A stretch of 64,000 nt of DNA from a virus (IMGVR_UViG_3300033068_001142:48262-112261), one strand, 5' to 3'. Shown: positions 2,058 through 48,022, counted from the stretch's first letter. Made by a program: numbers and translations. Notes: generated by a model from the sequence alone, not told the origin.

Positions 2058-3146
2058 TTACTCCTTTGGGTTGCCATTGTGGTCGCAGTCTCTTAGCCCT
2101 ATTCCTACTGGTTTTAGTGGGATGCCTTTTTTAGATAAGACTTCGTACTCAATTTTGTAAAACTTGTCTCTGTAATGAGTCTCAAAGTTAGCTAAGATTG
2201 CTTTACGTTCTGAGTCTGTACCTTTTGGTTTGACTTTGAACTCTTGTTGGTCAGGTGTAATGCAAGTGAATACTGGGTGACCGTTTTTGTCGATGGAGTA
2301 GGATGTGATTTCGTATTCAGCGTCGTTAGTTTTTTTGTACTTAAGTACTTCTGATGAACGGTGGTTGAATAGGTATTTGGCGTCTAGGTTGTAAATTACA
2401 GTACCTTCGTAGGATCTTGCCATACAACGGTTGTAGTGGCTTTCAATGTCAGCCTCTGTATCACAAATTACTCCAGTTAGGAAGCAGACTTTGTAATATT
2501 CGTAGGTTGAGAAGATGGAAGACAGTTTCTTGTTACGTTCTTGGTAGGTATCAGCTAAGAACGGTGCTTCGAATATGCAGAACATTAGTTGGTTTGACAG
2601 TTCTTTTGGTTTTTTAACTGCAGAGATGATGTCTTCTAGTGGTGTGTTAGGTATGTAAAGTTCTCCGTTTAAGCAAGTTGTGTTCAGCTTTTTCATTAAG
2701 CTTTTGATCCCATCTTCCAAGTGCGGGATTTGGGGAAATGCGTCTCCACCTCTTGAGGTTAGTGTTAGTGTGTCGTCTTTTAGCCAGTAAGTACCATTTA
2801 CTCCATTAAGCTTTGGAGTGGAGATGCAAGGAAATTTTACTAAGTGTTTATTTTCTTGGTAGGGTTTTACTTTTTGAGGTAGTAAGGTTTCGGTGTCACA
2901 TTCGATTGAGAGGCTGTAACCAGATTTAAGTTTGGCATTCCACTTTGATTGGGCTTCAAGTTCTGCTTGTTGAGCTGGTGTGGTTTCATTGGCTTTGCCA
3001 ATGTTTTTACCGTAGCAAGTTGTATGGTAGGACTGTAGCTTTCCGTTTAGCTGTCCTTGAGTTACTATTATTATGTTGTCAGTTACTGTTACAGAGTATT
3101 GTTGGATTGCTCCTGTTTTAGTTTTTTTGTATAGGGTTGGTGTCAT
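2058..3146 (-). CDS. ATP-dependent nucleic-acid ligase (DNA-ligase-like nucleotidyltransferase)
   Basis: Covalent nucleotidyltransferase motifs: I KLNGVNG (KxDG with N at the D position), III LNGELYIP, IV EGTVIYN, V LKYKK. The likely start is the ATG at 3146, preceded by AGGAG. The track ORF extends to 3200 on upstream in-frame codons that overlap the exonuclease stop. Confidence 0.7.
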   Translation of the reverse strand: MTPTLYKKTKTGAIQQYSVTVTDNIIIVTQGQLNGKLQSYHTTCYGKNIGKANETTPAQQAELEAQSKWNAKLKSGYSLSIECDTETLLPQKVKPYQENKHLVKFPCISTPKLNGVNGTYWLKDDTLTLTSRGGDAFPQIPHLEDGIKSLMKKLNTTCLNGELYIPNTPLEDIISAVKKPKELSNQLMFCIFEAPFLADTYQERNKKLSSIFSTYEYYKVCFLTGVICDTEADIESHYNRCMARSYEGTVIYNLDAKYLFNHRSSEVLKYKKTNDAEYEITSYSIDKNGHPVFTCITPDQQEFKVKPKGTDSERKAILANFETHYRDKFYKIEYEVLSKKGIPLKPVGIGLRDCDHNGNPKE

Positions 3147-3148
3147 GG

Positions 3149-3430
3149 TTACTCCTGTATGTAGTTTTGTAGCTCGTTCCATAAGGCGAAGGTTGCACAT
3201 GCGTCAATCGCTGCGTAGTGTAGGACGTGCTCTTCGTACATTTGAGATTGGTTGAAGTCGTCAGCAGAAACTGCCCAAGCTCCGTACTTGTAGCCCATTA
3301 GGTGTTTAAGACCTACTAGTGATTTTTGGTTATCTACATCGTTTAGTATGGTTTTAGCTAAGATCTGAGAATCTTCGAAGTCTTTTGGGAACTTTTGAGT
3401 ATGGTAGTAGACATGTTTTAGGTCGAAACT
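3149..3430 (-). CDS. DnaQ-like 3'-5' exonuclease, exon 2
   Basis: Manual translation gives SFDLKHVYYHTQKF...VLHYAAIDACATFALWNELQNYIQE*. This continues the Exo II motif (HNA|SFD) across the splice and contains Exo III (H-x-A-x-x-D-A). It has no ATG, so it is not in the ORF track. Confidence 0.75.
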   Translation of the reverse strand, partial: SFDLKHVYYHTQKFPKDFEDSQILAKTILNDVDNQKSLVGLKHLMGYKYGAWAVSADDFNQSQMYEEHVLHYAAIDACATFALWNELQNYIQE

Positions 3431-4495
3431 CGTTTATATTCAACAGAAGTCGTTAATTTCTGCCGGTTCTCAGTAAGTATTTACATGAACTCCTGCATGT
3501 TTCCATGCAGACTAGACTATATCAACATCTCAAAAAGAGATGGAACCTGTTTCCTTCCACTTGGAAGTACGAGCATTTCAGCTCTAGTCGTTGGACATTT
3601 ACAGCATAATTGCTGATTTAGTAACAGATTGCCCTCGTCTTTACGTTAGGGGTTTCCTGTTTTAAGGTTCTTTAGACATGAAATCGCTTTCATGAATGCC
3701 TATACTTGATAAAAATTTAACAGTTGTTTTATTAGTTGGAAATACTATTTCAGAATCGGATAGTAAGTTATTATTAGAATGTGGCCAATTCATTAATTTT
3801 ACAAAAGAGTCGTAAGCCTTTGCTGCTTCTATTGCTGATTTAAATGATCCTATTCCGTAATGTTTATGCTCGTAATTTATATGAGCTACCCATAGTGTAT
3901 CATGTATTTTAATTATACCTTTATAACCGGTAGTATTAGTTTTTTTGATTGTACGTTGATTTACTATTTGTATAGAATAATTAACCCATCTACAGTTAGA
4001 TGGTTCATAGTTACCGTCGTTATCTTTACGGTCTATAGTAAGTCCCTCTTGATACCCGTTAGAGATAGCCCAATCATAAAAAGCGTCAAATGAGTTTATC
4101 CATTCTTCACACATAGTGATATTTTTACTAAGGTATGATACTGATCTAGAATCTGTACATTTTAACTTAGTTTTAGTATCTGCCCAAATTCTATAAAGTT
4201 TATGGTTTCTGTTTGGTTTTTTATTTGATGTTCCGTTACATCCTTTACAAAATAATTGATTTTGTGATTTAGTTGTAACTACTGCATCAAAGTGGGATAA
4301 ACAGTTTGTACATTCGAATGTTGCCATTCTTACTTTTTTGTAATAATTTTCCGTTGGTTTTTTCATTCCAAGATCTTTTATGACTTTCATTTTGAAAGTG
4401 TATTCTGTTAAAGGTTTTAGTGCTGCCATAATAATGCTCCTTATATGTTTTAATAAGTATAGCATAATTATGCCAAAATGTCAAGTATTTAGTTA
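3431..4495 (-). ncRNA. Group I intron (IA, T4-like core) interrupting the exonuclease gene; carries an HNH endonuclease ORF
   Basis: Exon 1 ends GCU, followed by an in-frame UAA. The 3' part carries Q-like AAAUCAGCAAUU, R GUCCAACGACUAGAG, S UGAUAUAGUCUAGUCUG and AAUUAACGACU 17 nt before the terminal G. Splicing restores the Exo II motif ...VWHNA|SFDLKH. Confidence 0.75.
3662..4465 (-). CDS. Intron-encoded HNH homing endonuclease
   Basis: 267 aa with an HNH_3-type motif ...DRKDNDGNYEPSNCRWVN... It lies entirely inside intron 1 on the same strand. Confidence 0.75.
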   Translation of the reverse strand: MLYLLKHIRSIIMAALKPLTEYTFKMKVIKDLGMKKPTENYYKKVRMATFECTNCLSHFDAVVTTKSQNQLFCKGCNGTSNKKPNRNHKLYRIWADTKTKLKCTDSRSVSYLSKNITMCEEWINSFDAFYDWAISNGYQEGLTIDRKDNDGNYEPSNCRWVNYSIQIVNQRTIKKTNTTGYKGIIKIHDTLWVAHINYEHKHYGIGSFKSAIEAAKAYDSFVKLMNWPHSNNNLLSDSEIVFPTNKTTVKFLSSIGIHESDFMSKEP

Positions 4496-4882
4496 AGCGT
4501 TGTGCCAGACTTGTTTTATTGGTGTTGTAACTAGCCAGTTTAAGGTGATGTCTCGCATACGTGTGTCTGTGAAAATGATTACGTATGCAGTTGTTTCTGA
4601 TGTTGCTATGGAGCAGTGTGTCATCCTAACGAGTGATGGATGTGAAATACCAGAAGATAGAATGGCTTGGTTTGTTTTATGGTAAGCTAATGAGTTGGGT
4701 GGTAGAGCTGCAAGTTTTAGTTTTAGTCGTTCTTTTTCCTCGTCAGTGTACTTGGATGCAGTTTCAAAGTCACAAGCGATTATTGGGTAGGTTTTTGCAA
4801 TGTCTTGTAGCGTTTGAAGGAGTAGTAATTGGTTAGTTATTACAGTGTAAGTTACTGTTGTTGAGGTAGTCAATGTTTCCAA
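4496..4882 (-). CDS. DnaQ-like 3'-5' exonuclease, exon 1
   Basis: Exo I motif IIACDFETAS. The exon ends ...IKQVWHNA, the first half of the Exo II H-N-A-x-F-D motif, and is immediately followed by a stop inside the intron. The start is an apparent TTG with an AAGGA RBS. Confidence 0.75.
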
Positions 4883-5108
4883 GTTCTGTCCTTAATTGTA
4901 TTTTTGGTTCAACGTAGCGGTATTCTAGTTGTACAGCGTTTAGTAATACTTTGTGAGCTCTTGTACAAGCGACATAGTAAAGATTTAGTTCAGTTTGTTC
5001 TTCCTTTGTTAGTTGGTCGTATGTGATGTTTTTAGAAGCCATAGAGATTTGTACCATTTTTACGGCATTGTTTAAGTCATCAGCAATGTAAACCTCGTCA
5101 TACTCAAG
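4833..5108 (-). CDS. SF1 (UvrD/Dda-like) DNA helicase, exon 2
   Basis: It begins LEYDEVYIADD... immediately after motif V and contains YVACTRAHKVL, the SF1 motif VI. The junction ...TAHSTKG|LEYDEVYI matches the UvrD pattern TLHSAKGLEF. Confidence 0.75.
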   Translation of the reverse strand, partial: LEYDEVYIADDLNNAVKMVQISMASKNITYDQLTKEEQTELNLYYVACTRAHKVLLNAVQLEYRYVEPKIQLRTELGNIDYLNNSNLHCNN

Positions 5109-5389
5109 CATTATGTTCCGTATAAGGCGTTAATTTATACGTGCAGCATTACCTGCAACTATACATTACTGTATAGATCAGACTATATCTTCATCCCAGT
5201 AGGATGCTCCCCGTTTCCACCCACTTGGGTGTACGTGCAAAAGCACTAGTCGTTGAACGTTCCTCGTTATGAGGCTTCGCTGCTGATTGTCCTAGGAGTA
5301 GGATGTCCCAGCAATTAGAGGAGTTTTGATACACATTACTGTGTAAAAGGGCCTATGTAGTTTTATTATGAGTCACTCAACTTAAATTA
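5109..5389 (-). ncRNA. ORF-less group I intron (281 nt) in the helicase gene
   Basis: Exon 1 ends GGU, followed by UAA. Core elements read on the minus strand: P UAAUUGCUGGGACA, Q CAAUCAGCAGCG, R GUUCAACGACUAGUG, S GAAGAUAUAGUCUGA, and AAUUAACGCCU 16 nt before the terminal G. Confidence 0.8.
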
Positions 5390-6625
5390 ACCCTTAGTTG
5401 AGTGAGCTGTTCCTAAATGGAAAGAGCTTGTTAGTCTTTCGTGTTTTTTTGCTTCTTCGTAACAACTAAGTACTCCAGTAACTCTGTATTTTAGAATTAG
5501 ACTGATTGCTGTTGATACTTGCTGGTCTTCTTTATAGAGGTCTTTTAAGTAGTTTAAGTGGTTTCTGTACTTTAAAATTAGTTCTCTATCTTCGTAGTAG
5601 TCGTTGATGTCTTGTTGAATGCTTTTGAATTCAACTGGCATGAAGCCTTTGTTTTTAGAAAGACAAAGTGCTTTCGGTAATGAGAAGATATCATCAGCTG
5701 AACGAGTTAAGGTGTACGGGACTTTTAGTTCGTTTAGTTCCATCATTTTAGAGATTAGTGTTGTGTTTGTTCTTGCAATGAAGGCTTGGGTTTTTGGTTT
5801 GTCTGGTGACTGTTCAGTTCCGTTGAATACCATTTTAGGATCTATGTAAGTTTTACAGTAGCTGTTGACTCTTTCTGCAATTTGAGGTGAAACTCTAAAT
5901 GACTTTGACATTGGGAATTCTACACCAGTTGATTTCATTACGTTGAAGCAGTTAATGGTGTGGTTAAAGCTGTAAATGTTTTGACGAGAATCTCCGACTA
6001 AGAGTTTCTTGGCAGAAGGGATTAGTTTAAAGATTTCTAGTGTTACTGGGTTGATGTCACCAGCTTCGTCAAGAGCAATGAAGTCAAATGGTTGGTAAGA
6101 GATGTGGTCGGTAGCTAAGAGTATATGGAAGTATTTTAGGTAAAATTCGTGAGTACATTCGATGTCACCACTTTCCATTTGATGGATATAGGATTCTAGT
6201 AGTAATAGTTCTTTTTCTGTTATGGGTACTTTTTCTTCTTTGCAGAAGTCTGAGAAATGTAAGTGTTTAGATAGAAAGTACTCTTTTAAGTAGTCTACGA
6301 GTTCACAACGTCTTTCGTATGGAATGTCTTGGTTGATGTTACGGTAATTGAATTTGCCGAGTGTTAAGTGGTTTTTTACTACCGTTGGTCTGTAAGCTAA
6401 TGAATGTACGGTACAGCAAGTTACTGTTTTGGGGAACTTGGATGCAGCTTCGGTTGCAATGCTTTTATTATAAGCTAAGTAAAGAGCGTTAGTAGGGTTA
6501 AGTGCTTTTGCTATTGATACTAAGAGCGCTGTTTTTCCTGCCCCTGCTACGGCATTTACTTTTACGTAGCCATCATTAGATTTTACATGATTTAGTATTT
6601 GGTGTTGTTCGTCTGTTAATTTCAA
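5390..6625 (-). CDS. SF1 (UvrD/Dda-like) DNA helicase, exon 1
   Basis: Walker A AVAGAGKTALL, motif Ia TVHS, motif II ALDEAGD, motif III LLVGDSRQ, motif V TAHSTKG at the extreme end of the ORF. Confidence 0.75.
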
Positions 6626-18600: not shown

Positions 18601-19274
18601 AGTCCAAAGGCAGTGTTTATTTCCAAGATGTAAAGGTTTTGGTCTTCATCTTCGATTATGTCTACGGCACCATAAGTTAGGTTTAACGCTGTTAAGGATT
18701 TAGTAGCTAAGTCTGGTAGAATTACTGGGAATTCAATGTCGTTTCTAGCGAATATGTAACCGTTAGCACAGTTCCAGATGTATGGTGATCTTTCACCTTC
18801 GAAGTCACGTTTTTTAAGTTTCTTTTTCATGTCTACAACACGGTTGTTGACTACAATTGCACGGTACTCATGTTTTTTCTCAATGAACTTAGTGTATAGT
18901 GGTGCGTTTGGTAGCTCAGATGGCTTACCAACTACGATACCTTCACCTGAGTGACCTGTTACTGTTGTACGAGCTAAGTAGGTTGTTTCTTCTTCAAGTT
19001 CGGTTTTGCTGAAATAGAAGTCTGGTGTAGGAAGCTCAGCTGCTTTTAGTTTTGTAAAGGTTGTGATTTTGTTAGCTGCATCTTTTACTGATTGAAGTGG
19101 GTTAAGGTAACGAGAGTTGTGGACTACGTTAACGTTACCCCAGTTTATGATAGTGTCTGTTGGTTTACCTCTAAATTTGCTGTGTCTGTGTTGGATACGT
19201 TTGATGTTTAGGTAATCAGCTAAGGCTTTTGCAGAGTTTGAAGGTTTGTAAGACTGAACTCTTAAACGTCTCAT
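18549..19274 (-). CDS. ATP-grasp family ligase (RimK/glutathione-synthetase-like)
   Basis: ...GEGIVVGKP..., ...YGAVDIIEDEDQNLYILEINTAFGL..., the C-terminal ATP-grasp signature. The 5' 50 nt of the track ORF overlap 18298..18600, so the real start is probably an internal Met. Confidence 0.6.
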   Translation of the reverse strand: MRRLRVQSYKPSNSAKALADYLNIKRIQHRHSKFRGKPTDTIINWGNVNVVHNSRYLNPLQSVKDAANKITTFTKLKAAELPTPDFYFSKTELEEETTYLARTTVTGHSGEGIVVGKPSELPNAPLYTKFIEKKHEYRAIVVNNRVVDMKKKLKKRDFEGERSPYIWNCANGYIFARNDIEFPVILPDLATKSLTALNLTYGAVDIIEDEDQNLYILEINTAFGLCGTTTQLVGDAIKELL

Positions 19275-20683
19275 CTATAAACCTTGATTTCTGCAATTTC
19301 TGAAGTGTTGATTGTGTAGTTTCCAGAACCTCCAGAAGATCTAACACCTCTAAAGTCTAAGCAAGTTGCACTTTTTTGGAAACTGAAGTGAGATGTGTCG
19401 CCTTGTACTGTAAACGAAAGTCCGTCTTTTAGTACTATTTGTAAAATGTTTGGTAAGTCTTTAACTGTTAGTTTAGAGAACGGTAAAGTTATCTCTTTTG
19501 GTTCTTTGTAGACTACTACGTTTTGGATGTCTTGTTTGAATTCAGTTACTGCTGTATTTAGCTGAGGGTAAGTTGTGATGTGTTTTGCAACGTACTTGAA
19601 GTAGTCTTTTAATGTAACTCTTTTAGCTGCTGGTCTTGTGTATTCAATTAATGAGTCTAAGAATTGGATATAAGTTTTTAAGCTGTTTAAGTCTGTTGTA
19701 GAGTTGAAGATTCTAACTTCGATTGTTGCTTCGTTACCTTCGTTGATTACATTGTATCTGTCCATTGAGATTGGTGCGTTATCTTTAGAGAACACTTTAC
19801 CAATTGGTCTGAATGGGCAATAGTTGTTTAATTTTCTTGTTGCTATGTGCTCTAACAAGTCTTGTGATGAGTATAGCAAGAAGTAGAACATTGCGTAGTG
19901 TTTTTTGTCTTTGAATGCCGTTCTACTGATGTGTACGTGACATCCGTTTGACTCAGACGTTTCAACTGATGTAGTTGCAACTGTGTTTAAGAATGACTTT
20001 TCAGCCATTAACTCTTCGAATGTGTGAGGGTGTGATACTACCTCAGCTCTAAATTGACCACCAGATATTGATGAGTCTGCTTTTAAGTAAACTTCACGTG
20101 AATGTTTTGCCATTACTTTTAGCGCTTCTTTTTTAGAGTTGAATCCGTATTCTAGTTCAATGCCGTAGAACTTTTTGTTAGGTGATTCACCTATAAATGA
20201 AGGAGTTGGTTTGTAACTGTGAGGGTTAACTTTCACTAAGTCTTCTTGACATGAGTCACATAAGTGGAATTCATTTGGAGTATCAATGCTAGCTCCACAG
20301 TTTACACATGAATGGTCGTTTAAGATCATTGTGTTAGTTGTAATGTTAAAGAACATGTTTGGAGTTGTTGTTTTAATGTTTTCAGACTGTAAGAATGGTT
20401 TAGTGTGGTTAAACTCGTAAACAGTGCTATTAATGTTTATACCTTTTATCCAAGATTCGTGGATTGGGTATTCTACGTTTTGGTGTTTAACAAAAATTTC
20501 AACACAGAATGCGTCTTCATTTTTCTTGAAAGTTGTTAATTCTAACTCTCTTGGTGCTGTATCTAAAGCTGAGTCATAAATAACGTAATCTTTACCTTTA
20601 AAGGTTTGTTCTGTTTCAAAGTCGTAAACTTCTTCTAATGTTTGATTAATTTTAGTTTTACTTTTTAATATTAGTTTTATCAT
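19271..20683 (-). CDS. Zn-ribbon + glutamine-synthetase-fold carboxylate-amine ligase (GCS2/YbdK-like amidoligase)
   Basis: N-terminal CVNCGASIDTPNEFHLCDSCQ. The C-terminal half has FYGIELEYGF (GxExE strand) and NGCHVHISR (G-x-H-V-H), as in YbdK/GCS2-type amidoligases. Confidence 0.5.
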   Translation of the reverse strand: MIKLILKSKTKINQTLEEVYDFETEQTFKGKDYVIYDSALDTAPRELELTTFKKNEDAFCVEIFVKHQNVEYPIHESWIKGININSTVYEFNHTKPFLQSENIKTTTPNMFFNITTNTMILNDHSCVNCGASIDTPNEFHLCDSCQEDLVKVNPHSYKPTPSFIGESPNKKFYGIELEYGFNSKKEALKVMAKHSREVYLKADSSISGGQFRAEVVSHPHTFEELMAEKSFLNTVATTSVETSESNGCHVHISRTAFKDKKHYAMFYFLLYSSQDLLEHIATRKLNNYCPFRPIGKVFSKDNAPISMDRYNVINEGNEATIEVRIFNSTTDLNSLKTYIQFLDSLIEYTRPAAKRVTLKDYFKYVAKHITTYPQLNTAVTEFKQDIQNVVVYKEPKEITLPFSKLTVKDLPNILQIVLKDGLSFTVQGDTSHFSFQKSATCLDFRGVRSSGGSGNYTINTSEIAEIKVYR

Positions 20684-20711: not shown

Positions 20712-20990
20712 TTAGTGTTTCCACAGCCTATCTGTAATTTGTTGAAAAGTAGTAGTTTCTAGTTTACCGTTTAAGAATACTGATTTTAATAAGCTATTGT
20801 TTTCTTCTTCCCAACTACAGTTATCCTTTAGTGTCAGTTTGTCATCTATTAATGTTACTTGTAATAAGCCTTGTGCAGATTTTTTAGTTCCATCATCTGT
20901 TATAGGGTCTTTTTGAATGTTAATAGGATTATCATTAATTATAGCAAATGTAGCTTTCATAGCAAATCCAAAAGTATCCCTAGTATTGTA
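20712..20990 (-). CDS. nadV: Nicotinamide phosphoribosyltransferase (NAMPT/NadV), exon 2
   Basis: ...YNTRDTFGFAMKATFAIINDNPINIQKDPITDDGTKKSAQGLLQV...LLKSVFLNGKL... aligns from memory with the C-terminus of NAMPT (…[28 protein letters not shown]…LLHTVFKNGKV…). The exact 3' splice site is ±a few codons. Confidence 0.65.
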   Translation of the reverse strand, partial: YNTRDTFGFAMKATFAIINDNPINIQKDPITDDGTKKSAQGLLQVTLIDDKLTLKDNCSWEEENNSLLKSVFLNGKLETTTFQQITDRLWKH

Positions 20991-22308
20991 CTGGTATGTA
21001 TATGCACATTGTTACTTAGGTATTTTTCCGTTAAGTACGTCCTCAATAAAAAGCTCTGTCGATTCTTTAGTTGAAGTTCTTAATTCTTTATAGTCTAAAA
21101 GAATGCTTTGTTCTAATAGGTATGCATTATAAAGTGTAGTTTCAAAAGTATCAATTATGCTAATGTCACATTTGAACTTAGACTTTAATGCATTTATGCG
21201 TTGTTTTAAATTTATAGTTATTCCAATTTTGAAGTATTGCCCTATTTGTAAATAATATAGGATAGCGGGTTTGTTTTTAAGATCATCACTTCTACTAAAT
21301 ATTGTCTCACAATACCCACCTGGTAGTTTGCCTTCTAGACATAGTGCATCTATTGTACATTTAGGACAACCTTGTCCAGCTATGTGTTTTTGGGCTGATT
21401 TTTTAAATTCTCCATGCACTTCACAGTAACAAGTAATGATTGACTTTTTGTTTATGTAATTACTACATTCGTAAGTATACTTACCGTTATATAAGTTTGT
21501 GGCATAATCAATAAATTCCTTAAACGTATGTGTTTTGATATTGGCTGATGATGCTATACCACATTTAGGACAACCTTTTGTCACATTTTTGCTTAATAGT
21601 GTATGCGGAGATGTTGAGTGTTCCCCATGTACTGGACATACTAAAGTTACTTTAGAATTTATACCAGTATAGTTATCTACTTTGAACTCAAAATTAGAAA
21701 ATTTATGTAAAAGTTTACTTTCTATTTCTTCCCATGTGTATTTTAATGGTTTAAATCCTGTCCGTCCTTTAGATTTTTGAGATCTCCTTAAAATTGCACA
21801 CTCCGGACATCCGTATATAGATGTTAAGTGTTTATCGGGGTTTTGTTCAAATTCACCATGGGTAGGACAAGTAATTATTGATTTTGTTTTAGCATTAGTG
21901 TATATAAACTTACTATAATCATACTTGCCATTATACTTTTTATTTGCTTTTTCTATAAATTTTTCTTTGTTTGTCATATTGTATCTCCTATCACTTATTG
22001 ATAAGTATACAATCTTTGTACTTAATAAATACTTAAGTAACAATGTGGACTATATCATCACCCTATAAAATAGGGGCTCACTGCTTCGACCCTGACAGGG
22101 GCCTACTCTCTTTCGAGATAGTCTCTGAACCTTCTCCTATACGGAGCTTGGCTGCGGATTGACCAATATTATAGATTTTTACTGTACTGTAGATAGTTAC
22201 TCTACACCCTATGCTATATTTCTATGTATAGTTAGTACTATAATATTAACGGAAGTTCCCGCAATTCAATGAGTTTTCGATATGGATTACTCCATAAAGG
22301 GGCCATTA
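20991..22308 (-). ncRNA. Group I intron in the NAMPT gene, carrying a Zn-ribbon/T5orf172 (GIY-YIG superfamily) endonuclease-like ORF
   Basis: Exon 1 ends UUU, followed by UAAUGG. Core elements: P CAUUGAAUUGCGGGAAC, Q GGUCAAUCCGCAGCC, R AGGUUCAGAGACUAUCUCGAAAG, S GAUGAUAUAGUCC, all 5' of the ORF. The NAMPT ORF stops in the middle of the conserved GSGG region. Confidence 0.7.
21012..22043 (-). CDS. Intron-encoded endonuclease-like protein: 3x Zn-ribbon repeats + C-terminal T5orf172 domain
   Basis: Three repeats of CPxHGE(F/H)x(13-16)GCPxC. The C-terminus ...ILYYLQIGQYFKIGITINLKQRINALKS matches the T5orf172/GIY-YIG-like motif. The probable true start is the internal ATG (MTNKEKF), preceded by AGGAGA. 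Confidence 0.6.
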   Translation of the reverse strand: MLLKYLLSTKIVYLSISDRRYNMTNKEKFIEKANKKYNGKYDYSKFIYTNAKTKSIITCPTHGEFEQNPDKHLTSIYGCPECAILRRSQKSKGRTGFKPLKYTWEEIESKLLHKFSNFEFKVDNYTGINSKVTLVCPVHGEHSTSPHTLLSKNVTKGCPKCGIASSANIKTHTFKEFIDYATNLYNGKYTYECSNYINKKSIITCYCEVHGEFKKSAQKHIAGQGCPKCTIDALCLEGKLPGGYCETIFSRSDDLKNKPAILYYLQIGQYFKIGITINLKQRINALKSKFKCDISIIDTFETTLYNAYLLEQSILLDYKELRTSTKESTELFIEDVLNGKIPK

Positions 22309-23727
22309 AAATGTTAACCCAATGCCTAATACTATGTTATCAGAAGCAAACTTTTTGTCTGCTAATTTTTTAAGGATAGTGTCTTGTCTTTCTAATGTGA
22401 TTGAGTCTCCGTAGATTAAGCCTACGTATGGTGATAAAGTTTTGTAACCTTTATCGTTTGTAGTGCCTCCAAATACGTCCCAAAGACACTTGATTGCCCC
22501 TTTAATTTGAGCTTCTGAAAGTAACTCAAAAGTATCCTCATTAATAACTTTGAAGCAGCCTTCTTTACAAGAGATGTAGAAGCTGCCCATATAAGTATGT
22601 TCTGCTGCTTCCTCTAATGTTAAAGTTGGAAACGATTGGTTTATTTTAACGCCGCAAATAACATCTACTGGATTACCTGAGTCAGGTCTAAAGACTACTT
22701 TAGCTAATCCTAGAGCATTTGGTTGACGAGATTCAATGATTGGTTTAAGTACTTTTATACCATATTCCATCATATACCAGAAGTCGAATGAGTCAGCAAC
22801 TATTGAGATAATTCCAGTTGGGTATAACTCTGTTATTAAGTACCAAATGTAAGCAATTTCTGCTAGTCTTTGAGTGTTTATGTGTGTACTGTCATATTGA
22901 AGCATGTCAATTGATAGGATTTTGTTAGCAGGAGTTACCCATTTACCAGTAATATCTAGTGATTGTTGAATGTTAGCAATGTTAGTACACATTACACTAT
23001 GTTCAGTTGCTGGAACAGATGTTCCTACTAATGACTTAGTGTAATCAGCAAAATAGTAGTCTTTTGCTCCTTGGATTGCTAAACAGGTGTCAGTTCCTAC
23101 AAAAGAGAATAGGTGTGATATTTGGTTTTTGTAGGCATCTTCCCTGTTTGATAGTCCTCTAGCAGAGAAATCATGTCCTTGAAATATTACAAATCCTTTG
23201 TCTGCACCAGTTAATTCTGCGTAGTGTTCAAAAGTTTTTCGGTATTCGTAAGCTATAGTAGCGTTTGTTGACATTTTCCATAACTCTGATGACATTACAG
23301 TTTCGATGTAGTTAACTAACCAACTAAATTTTGGGTGCGTATTTACTATAGTTAGTACTGGTATCTTAGCTGGAACTAGTGTGCCTTCTGGTAAAGATTT
23401 GATTTGTAATGGTAGGTATCCTAAGTCATGTAGTTCTTCTACGTGGTCAACTGGTATTGAATCTGGTCCAAGTGTTGAATCCATGAATAGTTTATACGAT
23501 TCTACTACTTCTTTTTTAGGTTTGTTAAAGAATCCTTCATTCCATTCTTTAATTAAGTAGTCCATGATGAAGGCTTGTAACCCTACCCATACAAGCTTAT
23601 CTGATGAGCCTTTATATCTTTTGAAAGATCTTGGTGTAAAGTTAGAGTAGACTAATGTAGTGTTTTGAGGGTACTGTCTTCTATGGTCAGCTTTATAGAA
23701 GTCTATAGCTAATAGTGGGTTAAGCAT
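22309..23727 (-). CDS. nadV: Nicotinamide phosphoribosyltransferase (NAMPT/NadV), exon 1
   Basis: MLNPLLAIDFYKADHRRQYP... is the characteristic NAMPT N-terminus. The ORF ends ...NIVLGIGLTF, truncated at the conserved GSGG block. Confidence 0.75.
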
Positions 23728-24109
23728 GTTGTTCCTTTTTGTAAGTTATTAGTTCTTTTAGTAACTGCATAGACTGCTCTAGTCCTGCTGAATCGTCTAG
23801 TAAGATGTTAAAGTGTGGTTTTCGTTTTTCTGGATTGATTGGAGATTCATTGTAATATGACCAAGTTAACGAAGCTTCTTCCCATTTTGTGGTTACTAGT
23901 GAAGGATTAGTGTTAGCTGTCCAAATACATAGGATGAATCCAACTTTTTGAGCTTCTTGTAGTAAGCTAACTATATCTGGGTAGAGGCTATAGTTGTTTG
24001 ATGAATCAACTAAGGTATAATCAAAATCTACTCCAATTACGATTTGGTGAGCTAATGAAGTAGATTTGAGTTTTTCAAGCCTAGTGCTGTTAAGTCTGTG
24101 TGGGTTCAT
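23720..24109 (-). CDS. Small HAD-like hydrolase/phosphatase
   Basis: IGVDFDYTL matches HAD motif I (DxDxT). Confidence 0.4.
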   Translation of the reverse strand: MNPHRLNSTRLEKLKSTSLAHQIVIGVDFDYTLVDSSNNYSLYPDIVSLLQEAQKVGFILCIWTANTNPSLVTTKWEEASLTWSYYNESPINPEKRKPHFNILLDDSAGLEQSMQLLKELITYKKEQHA

Positions 24110-24933
24110 AGTACTACCAATTCATTACAAGTATGGACTTGAGGTACTGAATTAGTAGTAATAAATTTGCTGATACCTGCTTCTTTCAGTTTGTTAAAGC
24201 CAGAGTTAAAGAAGCCATGAGTTACGTATAAGTGGATGTTACAAGAAGGTTCGATAGCTTTGATAGTTTTAGCAAGTTCCTCAAAAGTACGTCCATTTTG
24301 ACATATATCGTCTATGATTAAGACTGTTTTGTCTTTAAGTTGATCTGCTGTAGCAAAGACTTGAGTATCAAGAATTTTACCATTACTAACGTCTCTGATT
24401 TTGTCAGCTCTAATCATGGGTATATTGAATTGTTGAGAACAAGCAAATACTTTCTTGTTAGCACCGGCATCTGGAGAAACGAAGTAATCGTACTCTCTTA
24501 ACTTGATAGTATATTGTGCATCTAAAAGCAGTTGGTGAACTGGGACATTATAGCAGTTGTTTATCAATGCTGTCGATACATCACTGTGGTTATCGAAAGT
24601 TGTAACTTTAATGAAATTACAAGAGTTGATTAGGCTAGTGAATACTTTCAAACTAAATGATTCACCTTGGCTGCATCTACGGTCTTGGCGAGAATAAGCA
24701 CAGTATGGCATGACTAAGTTGATGCTAGAAGTGTTCCAATGGTGGTTGATAGCTTCAACTAAAAGTAGAAGTTCCATTACGTGATCTGAGCTAAGAATTG
24801 AGCCAGTGATAGTTACAGGGTAAACTCTAGCTGCATGTGGAGCTGTATCTAAAGTTACTTGAATCTCACCTGACGGGAATTGCATAACTGAGTATGAGCT
24901 TGATGATAGTTTAAAATTTGGTGTTAATTTCAT
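24106..24933 (-). CDS. prs: Ribose-phosphate pyrophosphokinase (PRPP synthetase)
   Basis: ...VMPYCAYSRQDRR (PYxxYxRQDR), VSPDAGANKKV, TVLIIDDICQNGRT (PRPP-binding loop). Confidence 0.65.
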   Translation of the reverse strand: MKLTPNFKLSSSSYSVMQFPSGEIQVTLDTAPHAARVYPVTITGSILSSDHVMELLLLVEAINHHWNTSSINLVMPYCAYSRQDRRCSQGESFSLKVFTSLINSCNFIKVTTFDNHSDVSTALINNCYNVPVHQLLLDAQYTIKLREYDYFVSPDAGANKKVFACSQQFNIPMIRADKIRDVSNGKILDTQVFATADQLKDKTVLIIDDICQNGRTFEELAKTIKAIEPSCNIHLYVTHGFFNSGFNKLKEAGISKFITTNSVPQVHTCNELVVL

Positions 24934-44826: not shown

Positions 44827-44979
44827 ATGAGTGTAGAAGTAACTACCGTAAAAGTAAGAAAGACTACCGTAGAGTTGTTAAAAGCGATAGCTGATAAACG
44901 AGGTAGAAGAGAGTCATTAGAGCAGGTAATACTAGAGTTAGTAGAGAAGTATGTAGGTAAGGTGCAAGATGCTAATTAA
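44827..44979 (+). CDS. Ribbon-helix-helix (Arc/CopG-like) DNA-binding protein
   Basis: Below the ORF-track cutoff (50 aa): MSVEVTTVKVRKTTVELLKAIADKRGRRESLEQVILELVEKYVGKVQDAN, a beta-strand followed by two helices. It is the first plus-strand gene after the divergent region, preceded by AAGGAG. Confidence 0.5.
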   Translation: MSVEVTTVKVRKTTVELLKAIADKRGRRESLEQVILELVEKYVGKVQDAN

Positions 44980-45199
44980 GAAAGTGATTGTGACTTGTAG
45001 TGAGTGTGGTACAGTTAATGATAGTGATGCTAAGTTCTGTAAGGAATGTGGGTGTGGTAATTCGGAGAAAGAGACAACTAGGTTAGCTGATCTTAGGGCT
45101 TTACCAAGAACTTGGAGATGTACTAGGTGTAAGAATGAAGTAGGTGCTCCAGGGTTGTGTGTTTACTGTAGAGAGAATAGTCGTGCCTACATTGTTTAA
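44969..45199 (+). CDS. Zn-ribbon protein
   Basis: 76 aa with CSECG...CKECGCG...CTRC...CVYC (four Cys pairs). Its start overlaps the RHH gene stop. Confidence 0.45.
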   Translation: MLIKKVIVTCSECGTVNDSDAKFCKECGCGNSEKETTRLADLRALPRTWRCTRCKNEVGAPGLCVYCRENSRAYIV

Positions 45200-45545
45200 G
45201 ATTAGTAGGAAAGAGGTAGAGACCGGGAAAGGTATTGTGTACTTGTTAGTGGTTAGGTTAGAGGATGGTACTGAAGCTTACAAGATTGGGATTACTACTA
45301 GAGATATTAGTGATAGAGTGGAAGAAATACTTACTAGTATATGGAAGAAGTTGAGGTACTATCCTTACTGTAAACCTAAGAGGTATAGGAGTACCGAGAA
45401 CTATTTTGAGAAAGAACAAGCAATACATAAAGAACTTGAAGAGTTTAGATGGGATGGATTAGCTAAGACATCAGGTGGAAATGAGTGGTTTAGTGGTGTT
45501 AGTCTTGAGCATGTGGTTGAAGTGTATGAAAGAATTGTATGTTAG
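45144..45545 (+). CDS. T5orf172 (GIY-YIG superfamily) domain protein
   Basis: ...GKGIVYLLVVRLEDGTEAYKIGITTRDISDRVEEI... is a T5orf172-type motif. The true start is probably internal. Confidence 0.5.
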   Translation: MLQGCVFTVERIVVPTLFKISRKEVETGKGIVYLLVVRLEDGTEAYKIGITTRDISDRVEEILTSIWKKLRYYPYCKPKRYRSTENYFEKEQAIHKELEEFRWDGLAKTSGGNEWFSGVSLEHVVEVYERIVC

Positions 45546-45587: not shown

Positions 45588-46448
45588 TTGAGTACTGTTT
45601 ACCGAAATGGGCTTGGACTAGTAGGGAATGGAATAGGTATAGCTTTAAAAAGTTGGAATATTTGGTTAGTATTAAAGAGTATAAGGAGTATAGAATGTTA
45701 TGTAATAAGTATAAAGATGAGGATGGGATTAATGAGTAGTGTAATTACTGTTGAACAGTTGAAGAATAGTATTCCTAGTAGGAAAGGAAGTATAACGGAA
45801 GAGTTGGTTAATGTTATTAATGAAGCTAATACAGAACCAGAGTTTCAAGGGGTTAGCTTATTTGAGACATTAGTTACATATGAGAATTTAATGATTAAGA
45901 ATAAAGCTGGGATTAGGGAGTTTGTGGATGCTTCTAGGTTTTGTGCTTACTTAGTTAGTATGGAGGATAACTATACAGAGGCGTTTAAGAAGACGTTTAG
46001 TTATAGGGATTTTGTTAAGAATAGAATGAATGCTACTTCTGGTACGAAAGAGTACAATGAGTTGACAAATGCAGCAAGTAGGTATCGAAGGGAGAATAAA
46101 TTAGTTGTTGATATGTTGACGTATAGTCAAGTACCAATTAGGATGTTTTTCCTAGGTGCTAGGTTTGAGGCTGTAAACGTGCTGATAAAAGAAATGAAGA
46201 CAGCTCAATATTCGAGAGATAGAATTGCAGCTGCTAAGGAAGTGCTGTTAGCTTTAAAAGAGCCGGAGAATGTTAAGATAGAGTTGGATATTGGAGTTAA
46301 AGAAAATAGCGCAGTTCAAAATCTAAATGCACAGTTAGCCGAATTTGCTAGTAATAGCTTAAAGCATTTAGAAGCTGGGACTACTGACTTAGCTAAGTTA
46401 GGAAGTATGAAAGCTAAAGATGATGTGATTGATGCGGAGGTAGAGTAA
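45588..46448 (+). CDS. Hypothetical protein, possible terminase small subunit by position
   Basis: It ends with an ATGA overlap onto the large terminase start. The likely real start is ATG 45732 (MSSVITVEQLK...). No diagnostic motif was seen. Confidence 0.3.
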   Translation: MSTVYRNGLGLVGNGIGIALKSWNIWLVLKSIRSIECYVISIKMRMGLMSSVITVEQLKNSIPSRKGSITEELVNVINEANTEPEFQGVSLFETLVTYENLMIKNKAGIREFVDASRFCAYLVSMEDNYTEAFKKTFSYRDFVKNRMNATSGTKEYNELTNAASRYRRENKLVVDMLTYSQVPIRMFFLGARFEAVNVLIKEMKTAQYSRDRIAAAKEVLLALKEPENVKIELDIGVKENSAVQNLNAQLAEFASNSLKHLEAGTTDLAKLGSMKAKDDVIDAEVE

Positions 46449-48022
46449 TGAGTAGTGCGTATATTCCAAGTCATGAGGCGTTAAAGTTTATAGCATTTGT
46501 TAGGGCTACAGGAAATGAGGAGTTTAGTTCTCCTGAAGTACACTATAAAATGGCGGATAGGTTGTTTAGTAGTAATCCACTGGATAAGAACGTGCTGATT
46601 GAGTGTACTAGGGGAGCTGGAAAATCTACGGTTGCCGAGTATGCTGTTATCTATGCAGCAGTGTTGGGAGAGTGGCCTGGGTTTGGTAAATGTCCGTTTA
46701 TAGTGTTTTTGGGTGCTAGTGCTGAAGGGAATGTTAGACAGTTTATGAAAAATGTTGCTAGTAAGGTTTCTAATTCAGAATTGCTTTCTTCATTAGTTGA
46801 GGTTAGAAGGCAGACTGATAAAGAGTTAGAACTGGTTAATAAAGATGGTGTAGAAATGTTTATCGCTGGTAAAGGGATGAATGTAAACTGGAGGGGTGCT
46901 AGAAGTCCTAATGGAGATAGGCCAAGTTTGTTGTTAGCGGATGACGTTTTACATAATGACTCTGCGACTTCTGAGGCTATTAGGAATACTATCGATACTA
47001 ATTGGTTTGCTAGTGCGTTACCTGCTTTAGCCCCTAGGCATAAAATTATATACATTGGTACTCCAATAAGTGAGGATGATTTGTTGCATAAGTTGAAGAA
47101 TAGTGGCGCCTATTCAGTGGTTAAGTTTCCACTATGTACTAAGTATCCGTGTAGAAGGGACGAGTATGATAGTATTTGGCCTGATAGGTTTACATATGAG
47201 TATACGGAGAGCATGTTTAAGCAGTTTGAGTCGTCAGGAAAAACTCAGTTGTTTTACCAAGAGTACTTGTTGGAAGTGGTTGACTTAGCTACCCTATTAG
47301 TTGATGAGGACGATATCAAGTGGTATGATCCTAGTATAGTGTTGAAAAATAAGGGATGGTATAACTTTTACATTAGTACAGACTTTGCTACTAGTACTAA
47401 GAAGAGTGCGGACTATAGTACGATTGGTGTATGGGCAATTAGTCATAATAACGATTGGCTGTTAGTTGATGGGCAATGTAAGAGGCAGACAATGCAGGAA
47501 AATATTGAGGACTTGTTTGGGTATGTTAGAAAGTGGAAACCGTTAAGTGTTGGTATTGAAAGTAGTGGACAGCAGGGAGGGTTCCTTAGCATTATAGAGG
47601 AAATGAAAGTTCAAAGAAATGTATGGTTTCAGTTTGCTAAGAAGCCTGGTAGTAAAGAGGTTGGTATTAGGCCTATCAAGGATAAGGTTCATAGGTTTGT
47701 TACAGGAGTACAACCAAAGTTTAAACAGAATAAAATCTGGCTACCTAAGCCTGAGTTACTGAAGAGCAGTAATCCTAGGTTACTTGAATTGGTTGAAGAG
47801 TTAGTGGCTGAGTTGAGTAAGTTTACGTTAGCTGGTGGTGTTAGTTCACTTAAGCATGATGACTGTATTGACTTGTTGAATCAGTTAAGTGAGATGGAGA
47901 TCTATACACCTAGTGAAGATATTATACAGGAGAAGTCAATAGTTACGGAAGGTGGGTTGATATGGACTGGTATTTGGGAAGAGGATGATAGTGATGAGTA
48001 TGGAGGAAGTACCATTTTTTAA
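46448..48022 (+). CDS. Terminase large subunit
   Basis: Walker A ECTRGAGKST, Walker B-like PSLLLADDVLH, a C-terminal nuclease-like acidic region, 524 aa. Confidence 0.7.
   Translation: MSSAYIPSHEALKFIAFVRATGNEEFSSPEVHYKMADRLFSSNPLDKNVLIECTRGAGKSTVAEYAVIYAAVLGEWPGFGKCPFIVFLGASAEGNVRQFMKNVASKVSNSELLSSLVEVRRQTDKELELVNKDGVEMFIAGKGMNVNWRGARSPNGDRPSLLLADDVLHNDSATSEAIRNTIDTNWFASALPALAPRHKIIYIGTPISEDDLLHKLKNSGAYSVVKFPLCTKYPCRRDEYDSIWPDRFTYEYTESMFKQFESSGKTQLFYQEYLLEVVDLATLLVDEDDIKWYDPSIVLKNKGWYNFYISTDFATSTKKSADYSTIGVWAISHNNDWLLVDGQCKRQTMQENIEDLFGYVRKWKPLSVGIESSGQQGGFLSIIEEMKVQRNVWFQFAKKPGSKEVGIRPIKDKVHRFVTGVQPKFKQNKIWLPKPELLKSSNPRLLELVEELVAELSKFTLAGGVSSLKHDDCIDLLNQLSEMEIYTPSEDIIQEKSIVTEGGLIWTGIWEEDDSDEYGGSTIF

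Follow-up and report, generated by a model that had tools for sequence, protein, structure and literature searches.

A group I intron with a zinc-ribbon/T5orf172 endonuclease gene in a NAMPT-family gene of a tailed phage

Why does a NAMPT-family gene of this phage stop short of the end of its family, and where is the remainder? The window (IMGVR_UViG_3300033068_001142:48262-112261, a stretch of 64,000 nucleotides) comes from a tailed phage, as it encodes a large terminase, a portal, a tail fibre, a primase and an RNA-polymerase-like protein. No close sequenced phage was found; the best phage NAMPT match is 49% identical. Gene callers annotate three separate ORFs at the locus. The first is a NAMPT-family ORF at 22306..23727 (minus strand; 473 aa), whose C-terminal end reads ...DNIVLGIGLTF*; the second, of 321 or 343 aa depending on the start codon, lies at 21012..22043 (minus strand), and the third is an 82-aa ORF at 20712..20960 (minus strand). 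A first-pass annotation had interpreted the arrangement as a group I intron carrying a zinc-ribbon/T5orf172 ORF inside an NAD-salvage (NAMPT) gene. The Rfam match, the in-frame join of the exons, the covariation among eight variants and the uninterrupted homologues described below all bear out the intron.

A group I intron divides the gene within a conserved serine codon

The Pfam family NAPRTase (239 positions) is distributed over two ORFs: 22306..23727(-) covers positions 1-175, and the frame of 20712..21011(-) covers 178-238. The family profile is therefore cut cleanly in two, and the missing NAMPT C-terminus lies downstream, where it had been expected. Rfam RF00028 (group I intron) matches 22026..22326(-) over its full length (model positions 1-253; 70.9 bits, E 3.5e-17). 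The curated gathering score of this model is 50 bits; the match was listed only in a permissive 4-kb run, and the whole-window run in gathering mode omitted it despite a score above the threshold. The gene is composed of the following parts.

22317..23727, minus strand: exon 1 of the NAMPT-family gene, 1411 nt; 3' end ...GGC ATT GGG T at the 5' splice site; NAPRTase 1-175 of 239 plus NAMPT_N
21005..22316, minus strand: group I intron, subgroup IA type, 1312 nt; P7.1 and P7.2 present; splice sites from the P1 U·G pair, the omega-G and the reading frame
20712..21004, minus strand: exon 2, 293 nt including the stop codon; NAPRTase 178-238 of 239; gapless junction alignment to PDB 9w5x

The boundaries were set from both sides. 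In P1, exon GGGU and intron UA pair with UGGCCC, which fixes the U·G pair and thus the 5' splice site after 22317. At the other end, G21005 is the only G that restores both the frame and the family motif, so that the intron spans 21005..22316; the limits given earlier, 20991..22308, are corrected on the grounds of P1, frame and omega-G. Since the 5' splice site follows GGGT at 22317, the LTF* tail of the first ORF is encoded by the intron. The ORF does end at ...GIGLTF, as had been noticed, but this is not the end of the family, and the interrupted block, previously given as GSGG, is G-I-G-S in the family.

The insertion point is the Ser codon of the conserved GIGSYTYQ motif, between its first and second base. 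Exon 2 begins with CA TAT ACA, and the codon is completed as T|CA. Joining 22317 to 21004 gives 1704 nt and a protein of 567 aa, with a predicted nucleotide junction of ...GGCATTGGGT|CATATACATACC. The ligation is in frame (GIG-S-YTYQ), and its product has the same length as the uninterrupted homologue P0123 (567 aa). Across the junction the spliced protein reads ...GIGSYTYQYNTRDTFGFAMKAT..., which aligns to GIGSFTYQYNTRDTFGFAMKAT of PDB 9w5x without a gap; a longer stretch, NIVLGIGSYTYQYNTRDTFGFAMKAT against NVVFGIGSFTYQYNTRDTFGFAMKAT of 9w5x, is likewise gapless. The whole spliced protein matches the NAMPT structure 9w5x with E 3.3e-135 and NCBIfam NF006629 end to end (505.8 bits, cutoff 405; model positions 5-461 of 465). 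Comparing the concatenated exons with NAMPT, a check proposed at the outset, thus reveals homology running through the junction, and the NAMPT-family assignment of the host gene is secure.

The first-pass annotation had also considered that the downstream ORF might lack NAMPT homology, or that homologues might naturally end at GIGLTF. Neither is the case: exon 2 is homologous to NAMPT, and related genes continue past this point. Uninterrupted relatives are P0123 (locus L018; syntenic, the closest at full length and exactly 567 aa), P0121 and P0124-P0129.

The same intron with its endonuclease gene was found at the same NAMPT-family codon in L003-L016 and L020. Nine variants of the intron are available, all in NAMPT-family genes and all from metagenome assemblies. 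Close homologues of the endonuclease (P0001-P0004, P0006, P0011 and P0012; 50-91% identity) all lie between a NAMPT exon-1 ORF and an ORF of ~82 aa. In every variant the 5' splice site reads GGGT|TAAC and the 3' splice site (A/G)TG|CATA; the omega-G (G21005) is invariant, and so is the exon-2 CAUA that follows it. In all of them the exon join restores G(I/L)GSY(T/S/A)Y(Q/N).

Wider searches were made with the locus, the intron core and the P1 pattern. When 50,697 phage records were searched by megablast and blastn, the locus and the intron core matched nothing beyond short stretches of the universal core in other introns, such as those in the Pseudomonas phage HPP-Temi RNA polymerase genes. 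Scanning IMG/VR for the P1/P2 pattern gave zero matches. With a looser P1 pattern, two true copies came to light in JGI metagenomes, which added L020, and no true copy in GTDB genomes; its other 10 matches were due to chance. As far as these searches reach, the intron is absent from the 50,697 phage records, IMG/VR and GTDB genomes. Neither the literature nor the annotated phages that we searched contained an intron in nadV/NAMPT. Elsewhere in the window, a split terL was suspected from a PHROG match that starts at profile position 273; this candidate was dropped, as that ORF carries a Walker A motif of its own and no intron lies at the site.

The intron RNA has a conserved fold

Eight full-length variants, each flanked by 12 nt of exon at both ends, were aligned, and pairs were counted on the complete model. 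The model comprises P1, P2, P3, P4, a branched P5 extension, P6/P6a, the P7 pseudoknot, P7.1, P7.2, P8, a long-range P9 and one hairpin.

22300..22320, minus strand: P1, GGGU + UA (22320..22315) with UGGCCC (22305..22300); U22317·G22303 wobble at the 5' splice site
22281..22296, minus strand: P2 hairpin with a GUAA loop; compensatory changes in 2 of 6 pairs
22077..22273, minus strand: P3, 22273..22267 with 22083..22077; 2 compensatory pairs; encloses P4 to P7.2
22263..22258 with 22158..22153, minus strand: P4; invariant
22257..22159, minus strand: branched P5 extension; 16 compensatory pairs
22152..22129, minus strand: P6/P6a; 2 compensatory pairs
22123..22119 (5' strand) with 22052..22048 (3' strand), minus strand: P7 pseudoknot; invariant
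22118..22107, minus strand: P7.1; 2 compensatory pairs
22103..22088, minus strand: P7.2; 3 compensatory pairs
22075..22061, minus strand: P8; included in the pair counts over the eight variants
22030..22046 (5' strand) with 21006..21022 (3' strand), minus strand: long-range P9.0/P9; 17 pairs, 98.5% of cells paired, 5 compensatory
21987..22005, minus strand: hairpin CUUAUCA/UGAUAGG over the Shine-Dalgarno sequence (UAGGAG) of the endonuclease gene; 7 pairs, 96% paired, 1 compensatory

Over the 107 proposed pairs, 98.1% of cells are paired in the eight variants, and 35 of the 107 pairs show compensatory changes. In shifted controls, with the 3' partners slid by 1-3 columns, the corresponding values are 32-43% and at most 5 compensatory pairs. 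All six pairs of P1 are invariant and formed in 8 of 8 variants, with no covariation. As P1, P4 and P7 never vary, they are neutral evidence. The presence of P7.1 and P7.2 between P7 and P3' places the intron in subgroup IA, the usual group I type in phages.

The 5' strand of the long-range P9 begins one base past P7, and its 3' strand lies directly before the omega-G at 21005. The two strands are CACATTG.../...CAATGTG in the window and CATTTAGTTACTTTAATA/TATTAAAGTAACTAAATG in L013. Rfam aligns a local hairpin at 22039..22019 as P9; this candidate was rejected for want of any compensatory change. With the long-range pairing, the endonuclease gene sits in a P9 loop of ~1 kb, and the 3' strand of P9 contains the last codons of that gene and its stop codon (ATA CCT AAG TAA), 7 nt before the splice site. 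Read from the sequence, the first three bases of exon 2 can pair with G22304, U22305 and A22306 to form P10, and these pairs are invariant.

By analogy with the intron ORFs of T4, the hairpin over the Shine-Dalgarno sequence may prevent translation of the endonuclease ORF from the precursor. A different hairpin at the same ribosome-binding site was rejected, as it showed no compensatory change. Directly upstream of the accepted hairpin is a conserved TATACT (22013..22008, minus strand), with TGn in some variants. That it might act as an internal promoter for the endonuclease gene is a weak idea: TATACT was not listed in the consensus scan, and the total matches of that scan did not exceed those in shuffled sequence.

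The fold bears directly on a second reading of the locus, in which a free-standing endonuclease gene has split the NAMPT gene, leaving two fragments with separate translation and an intron-like RNA that survives as a relic. The three separate ORFs of the gene callers would fit this reading, and functional phage genes in pieces are known, for example Aeh1 nrdA (cited in PMC10448857). However, the ribozyme core is kept by compensatory changes in the eight aligned variants, and the exons make poor genes of their own. The longest independent ORF of exon 2 starts at the Met in FAMKAT and thereby loses the conserved SYTYQYNTRDTFGFA; this Met is Ile in L006, so that no independent exon-2 ORF exists there, and no Shine-Dalgarno sequence precedes it. 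Exon 1, for its part, would carry three intron-encoded terminal residues. We therefore regard separate translation of the fragments as extremely improbable.

The endonuclease gene in the P9 loop

The ORF inside the intron had been described as 343 aa long, starting at TTG 22043. This ORF is present. The start is most likely ATG 21977, giving 321 aa, since homologues are 319-323 aa long and begin with MT(N/R)K, and since indels upstream are not multiples of three. TAGGAG precedes this ATG.

21012..21977, minus strand: homing endonuclease gene, 321 aa plus stop codon; ATG start
21798..21869, 21561..21638 and 21357..21425, minus strand: three zinc modules, CxxH...CxxC
about 21045..21272, minus strand: T5orf172/GIY-YIG-like domain, C-terminal

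The three repeats reported for the protein were all recovered (CPTHGE..GCPEC, CPVHGE..GCPKC and CEVHGE..GCPKC). Its C-terminus likewise belongs to T5orf172, of the GIY-YIG superfamily, with both T5orf172 (PF10544; 27.7 bits, cutoff 20) and MUG113 (PF13455; 27.6 bits, cutoff 22.3) above the Pfam cut-offs. DUF723 matches in two stretches (54.3 bits), and DUF4379 (22.3 bits) and CapR (20.3 bits) match below their cut-offs. The protein also matches PHROG 681, 'endonuclease', at 1.2e-46.

The full-length model of the endonuclease has a pTM of 0.37, with zinc modules and nuclease domain in no fixed mutual orientation, and the C-terminal domain was for this reason modelled alone. Foldseek of the full-length model against the PDB gave no match at E < 0.1, and the alignment profile of the endonuclease against PDB sequences gave a weak zinc-ribbon match to RPA12 alone. 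A GIY-YIG fold of the nuclease domain (beta-beta-alpha-beta-alpha, with conserved Tyr, Arg and Glu) is weakly supported.

Homologues of the protein number 2019 at E<=1e-10. In 40 homologues the three CxxH...CxxC sets are invariant, as are I253, S306 and F310 together with Y241, K250, G252, R260, E289 and E308. The gene is under purifying selection, with dN/dS of 0.09-0.20 across the whole ORF.

These data also address the possibility that the intron splices but is immobile, its ORF being an inactive or domesticated relative, such as a CapR-like DNA-binding regulator or a splicing helper. The invariance of the last six of these residues and the low dN/dS over the whole ORF argue against it. So does the occurrence of alleles with and without the intron among genes ~95% identical, with a recombination tract at the site, as active homing predicts. 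We consider an immobile element very unlikely, and the protein is presumably an active endonuclease that cuts near the insertion site.

Mobility of the intron, the host gene and comparison with known systems

The intron is patchily distributed among related genes. The NAMPT protein of intron-less L017 is 91% identical to that of the window (534 aa), and that of intron-less L018 is 76% identical. The most similar intron is that of L007, with 98% nucleotide identity in the core and 91% amino-acid identity in the endonuclease, while its NAMPT is just 70% identical over the 223 aa available. L007, which has the intron, and L018, which does not, are ~95% identical over 285 nt of flanking exon, except for the bases at the site.

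The window gene itself is a mosaic, mapped at the sites where L017 and L018 differ. It follows L017 over nt 4-1035 of the spliced CDS, then L018/L007 over nt 1041-1390, and again L017 from nt 1411 to the stop codon.

about 22324..22687, minus strand: foreign tract of exon 1, spliced CDS nt about 1041-1404, ~360 nt; ends at the insertion site

On one side the tract stops within about 20 nt of the insertion site, and it includes ~96 nt (32 aa) absent from L017. We read it as co-conversion left by homing, the footprint expected of double-strand-break repair, in which the intron and the exon upstream of it would have been copied from a lineage-B donor into a lineage-A gene. The tract, in data that are assemblies, proves recombination at the site and not the enzyme responsible. 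As it is found upstream only, it suggests a cut site in exon 1. The junction is GGG T|CA TA in all intron-bearing alleles, compared with GGT TCT and GGT AGC in the two intron-less alleles (insertion sites ATTGTACTAGGAATAGGTTCTTATACTTACCAGTAC in the L017 type and GGCCAAGGTAGCTACACATACC in the L018 type). The difference could reflect either the pairing that P1/P10 require or co-conversion.

The tract could instead be an assembly chimera of co-occurring strains, or the product of recombination unrelated to the endonuclease; the intron would still be real, and the evidence for recent homing weaker. All data are short-read assemblies, related phages recombine often, and nothing obvious marks the far end of the tract, at about nt 1041. 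On the other hand, the near end is closely tied to the insertion site, two contigs, one of 205 kb from JGI and one from Logan, encode the identical exon-1 protein, and the intron polymorphism between L007 and L018 is independent of the assembly of the window. On balance a chimera or ordinary recombination seems very unlikely. Mobility of the intron is indicated by its absence from close NAMPT relatives, by the location of the nearest intron in a more distant gene and by the mosaic tract at the site. Comparison of these alleles thus supports a recent move of the intron between related phages, probably carrying a piece of the gene along.

Together, our results suggest that the element is, very probably, a mobile IA-type group I intron with a homing endonuclease gene in a NAMPT-family gene of a large tailed phage. 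We then propose a model for its working. After transcription, the ribozyme core from P1 to P9 would fold, and free guanosine would attack just 3' of U22317, the U in the U·G pair. The 17-bp long-range P9.0/P9 helix would place the omega-G (21005) beside the core, and splicing of the 21005..22316 intron would ligate the exons into an mRNA for the 567-aa enzyme. The gene in the P9 loop would provide the endonuclease, in which a T5orf172 (GIY-YIG-type) nuclease comes after three zinc-ribbon modules for DNA binding. Upon co-infection with an intron-less phage, this endonuclease would cut the uninterrupted allele near the insertion site, and repair of the break from the intron-bearing copy would copy in the intron and flanking exon sequence.

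What the interrupted enzyme does was considered from its gene neighbourhood. In NARP1, Adps and Namat rebuild NAD+ from ADP-ribose and nicotinamide, which defeats NAD+-depleting defences, and the criterion is a Namat homologue no more than 10 genes from a Prs/Adps-family gene (bioRxiv 10.1101/2024.02.11.579819). The NAMPT-family gene has such a neighbour well within this distance.

24106..24933, minus strand: Prs-like gene, two genes upstream; Pfam Pribosyltran_N and Pribosyltran, with Pribosyl_synth weak

With this Prs-like neighbour two genes upstream and on the same strand, we lean towards the host gene being a Namat (a nicotinamide ADPR-transferase with an anti-defence role). The host gene may otherwise be a classical nicotinamide phosphoribosyltransferase that makes NMN from PRPP, for salvage or NARP2, and the best PDB and NCBIfam matches are indeed named NAMPT or nicotinate phosphoribosyltransferase. 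The Prs-like neighbour counts against this second assignment, which we hold to be the less probable one, if a serious contender. The original label of an NAD-salvage (NAMPT) gene therefore holds for the family and is questionable for the classical salvage role.

Phage group I introns and T5orf172 homing endonucleases are already known; as far as we have searched, an intron in a NAMPT gene is new, and so is a T5orf172 endonuclease gene within a phage intron. Neither the host gene nor the location of the T5orf172 gene alters the known working of such elements. The locus has practical consequences nonetheless. In at least nine metagenomic phage lineages gene calling breaks the gene into a truncated NAMPT and an orphan ORF of ~82 aa, so that its count or size will come out wrong in surveys that depend on such calls, be they of NARP1/NARP2 or of 'auxiliary metabolic genes'. 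The alleles with and without the intron, together with the mapped co-conversion tract, form a natural set, and the recently recognised T5orf172 family with zinc-finger arrays is found here in the classical intron-encoded position with a predictable target site. The natural co-conversion tract and the anti-defence context are of some added value. As genes directed against NAD+-depleting defences are conserved enough to offer homing sites, selfish introns can carry pieces of such genes from one phage to another. It is tempting to go further and take the anti-defence Namat/NAMPT gene as the safe harbour of this intron family, each homing event swapping several hundred bases between lineages, and the protein as the first phage intron-encoded T5orf172 endonuclease to be demonstrated; this larger claim we find doubtful. 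If the safe-harbour reading were true, a selfish element would be a recurrent shuffler of a counter-immunity enzyme.

Among known systems, the T4 introns are the classical reference. The td (I-TevI), nrdB and nrdD (sunY) introns of T4 are IA-type and self-splicing; their homing endonucleases are expressed separately, and homing co-converts the flanking exon. Their ORFs are silenced by a hairpin over the ribosome-binding site, and in the nrdD intron the ORF lies downstream of the core. The present intron resembles them in combining an IA ribozyme with a GIY-YIG-superfamily endonuclease that has a modular DNA-binding region. It differs in its host gene, which is of the NAMPT family whereas the T4 hosts serve nucleotide synthesis, and in the position of its ORF, which is in the P9 loop with the stop codon inside the 3' strand of P9. 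The nuclease belongs to the T5orf172 branch and has three zinc ribbons, in contrast to the zinc finger and helix-turn-helix of I-TevI. A non-HNH endonuclease had been thought unusual for a phage intron; this does not hold, as I-TevI and I-TevII of T4 are GIY-YIG enzymes. T5orf172 endonucleases, too, have been described before (PMC10448857, PMC10151680).

The domain plan is that of the T5orf172 homing endonucleases of ICP1 and other phages, which join repeated CapR/DUF723/DUF4379 zinc fingers to a T5orf172 nuclease (Barth, Dunham and Seed 2023, PMC10448857). Such genes are present in multiple copies in phage genomes and are found at boundaries of genetic exchange, comparable to the mosaic tract here. 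They are mostly free-standing, and the ICP1 terL case adjoins an intron and is not inside it (PMC10448857), whereas the gene reported here is within the intron. In the Ulva plastid, the psbA-750 group I intron, of the 'derived B1' class and about 750 nt long, encodes a T5orf172 protein (PMC10151680). Compared by description, it shares with the phage intron an ORF with a T5orf172 domain and differs in its chloroplast genome, host gene and 'derived B1' class, and it is much shorter. Finally, the close Prs-like and Nampt-like genes on one strand recall the Adps and Namat pair of NARP1, and the NARP1 paper mentions no intron (bioRxiv 10.1101/2024.02.11.579819).

Additional group I introns and intron candidates in the window and in a Pseudomonas phage

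Two further Rfam matches to group I introns lie in the window in addition to the nadV intron, the group I intron that splits the NAMPT-family gene:
5159..5398, minus strand: second group I intron, 98.3 bits, ~240 nt, without an ORF
3493..3721, minus strand: third match to the group I intron model, 78 bits

The second intron splits a UvrD-like SF1 helicase, with flanking ORFs at 5387..6625 and 4833..5111. The upstream exon (ORF 5387..6625) ends in ...HLGTAHSTKG, and the ORF downstream of the intron (4833..5111) gives a weak UvrD_C match. The third match overlaps a 267-aa ORF (3662..4465) and extends just downstream of it. This ORF has a weak AP2 match and may encode an endonuclease of the HNH/AP2 type. 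On either side of the intron match are a 129-aa ORF (4493..4882) with an exonuclease-like motif and an ATP-dependent DNA ligase gene (2058..3200).

The gathering-mode Rfam scan of all 64 kb did not report the nadV intron, despite its score of 70.9 bits against a threshold of 50, and the intron was recovered only by an Rfam search of 4 kb in evalue mode. Further introns of this phage could have been overlooked by the whole-window scan in the same way.

Outside the window, a 61-nt segment of the 303-kb Pseudomonas phage HPP-Temi (119813..119873) is 87% identical to the nadV intron core. The segment falls within an unannotated gap between two ORFs, both annotated as RNA polymerase beta subunit, and the match suggests that this gap holds an unannotated group I intron.

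Length variation and gene neighborhood of the NAMPT-family protein

Aligned to the solved NAMPT structure 9w5x, the spliced NAMPT product contains two insertions of ~45 aa each:
~22846..22980: insertion 1, aa 250-294
~22516..22650: insertion 2, aa 360-404

An intron-less relative (L017) lacks 32 aa of insertion 2, and the same 32 aa fall inside the transferred tract, the part of exon 1 derived from another NAMPT lineage. Across the intron-bearing relatives, the length of exon 1 ranges from 407 to 731 aa.

A gene cluster directly follows the NAMPT-family gene:
19271..20683 and downstream (L002 4788..8419): Amidoligase_2, an ATP-grasp/RimK-like protein and a GATase_4 + GGACT protein

This cluster, which is also kept in the intron-less relative L018, resembles peptide-ligase/tagging gene sets.

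Zinc-ribbon arrays and candidate free-standing homing endonuclease genes

Among the listed homologues of the intron-encoded endonuclease are many proteins of 430-550 aa that have the zinc-ribbon array (DUF4379 + DUF723) in common with it but no T5orf172 (for example P0010, P0014-P0017 and P0064). One such protein is labelled a Vsr-type endonuclease by its source. These homologues suggest that the same DNA-binding array is paired with different nuclease domains.

Two candidate free-standing endonuclease loci are present in the window:
~12.9-13.7 kb (L002 10639..11436), strand opposite to its neighbors: 265-aa ORF with NUMOD4 and HNH_3 domains
44969..45545, plus strand: small zinc-ribbon ORF (CSECG...CKECG), followed by a 133-aa T5orf172-type ORF

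The former adjoins the primase gene and probably represents a further homing endonuclease gene of the free-standing type. The latter pair lies just upstream of terL (46448..48022), and its 133-aa ORF carries the T5orf172-type motifs ...YKIGITTRD...R...NEWF. The pair has the appearance of a T5orf172 endonuclease gene, either free-standing or decayed, that adjoins the terminase genes, an arrangement also described for ICP1 (PMC10448857).
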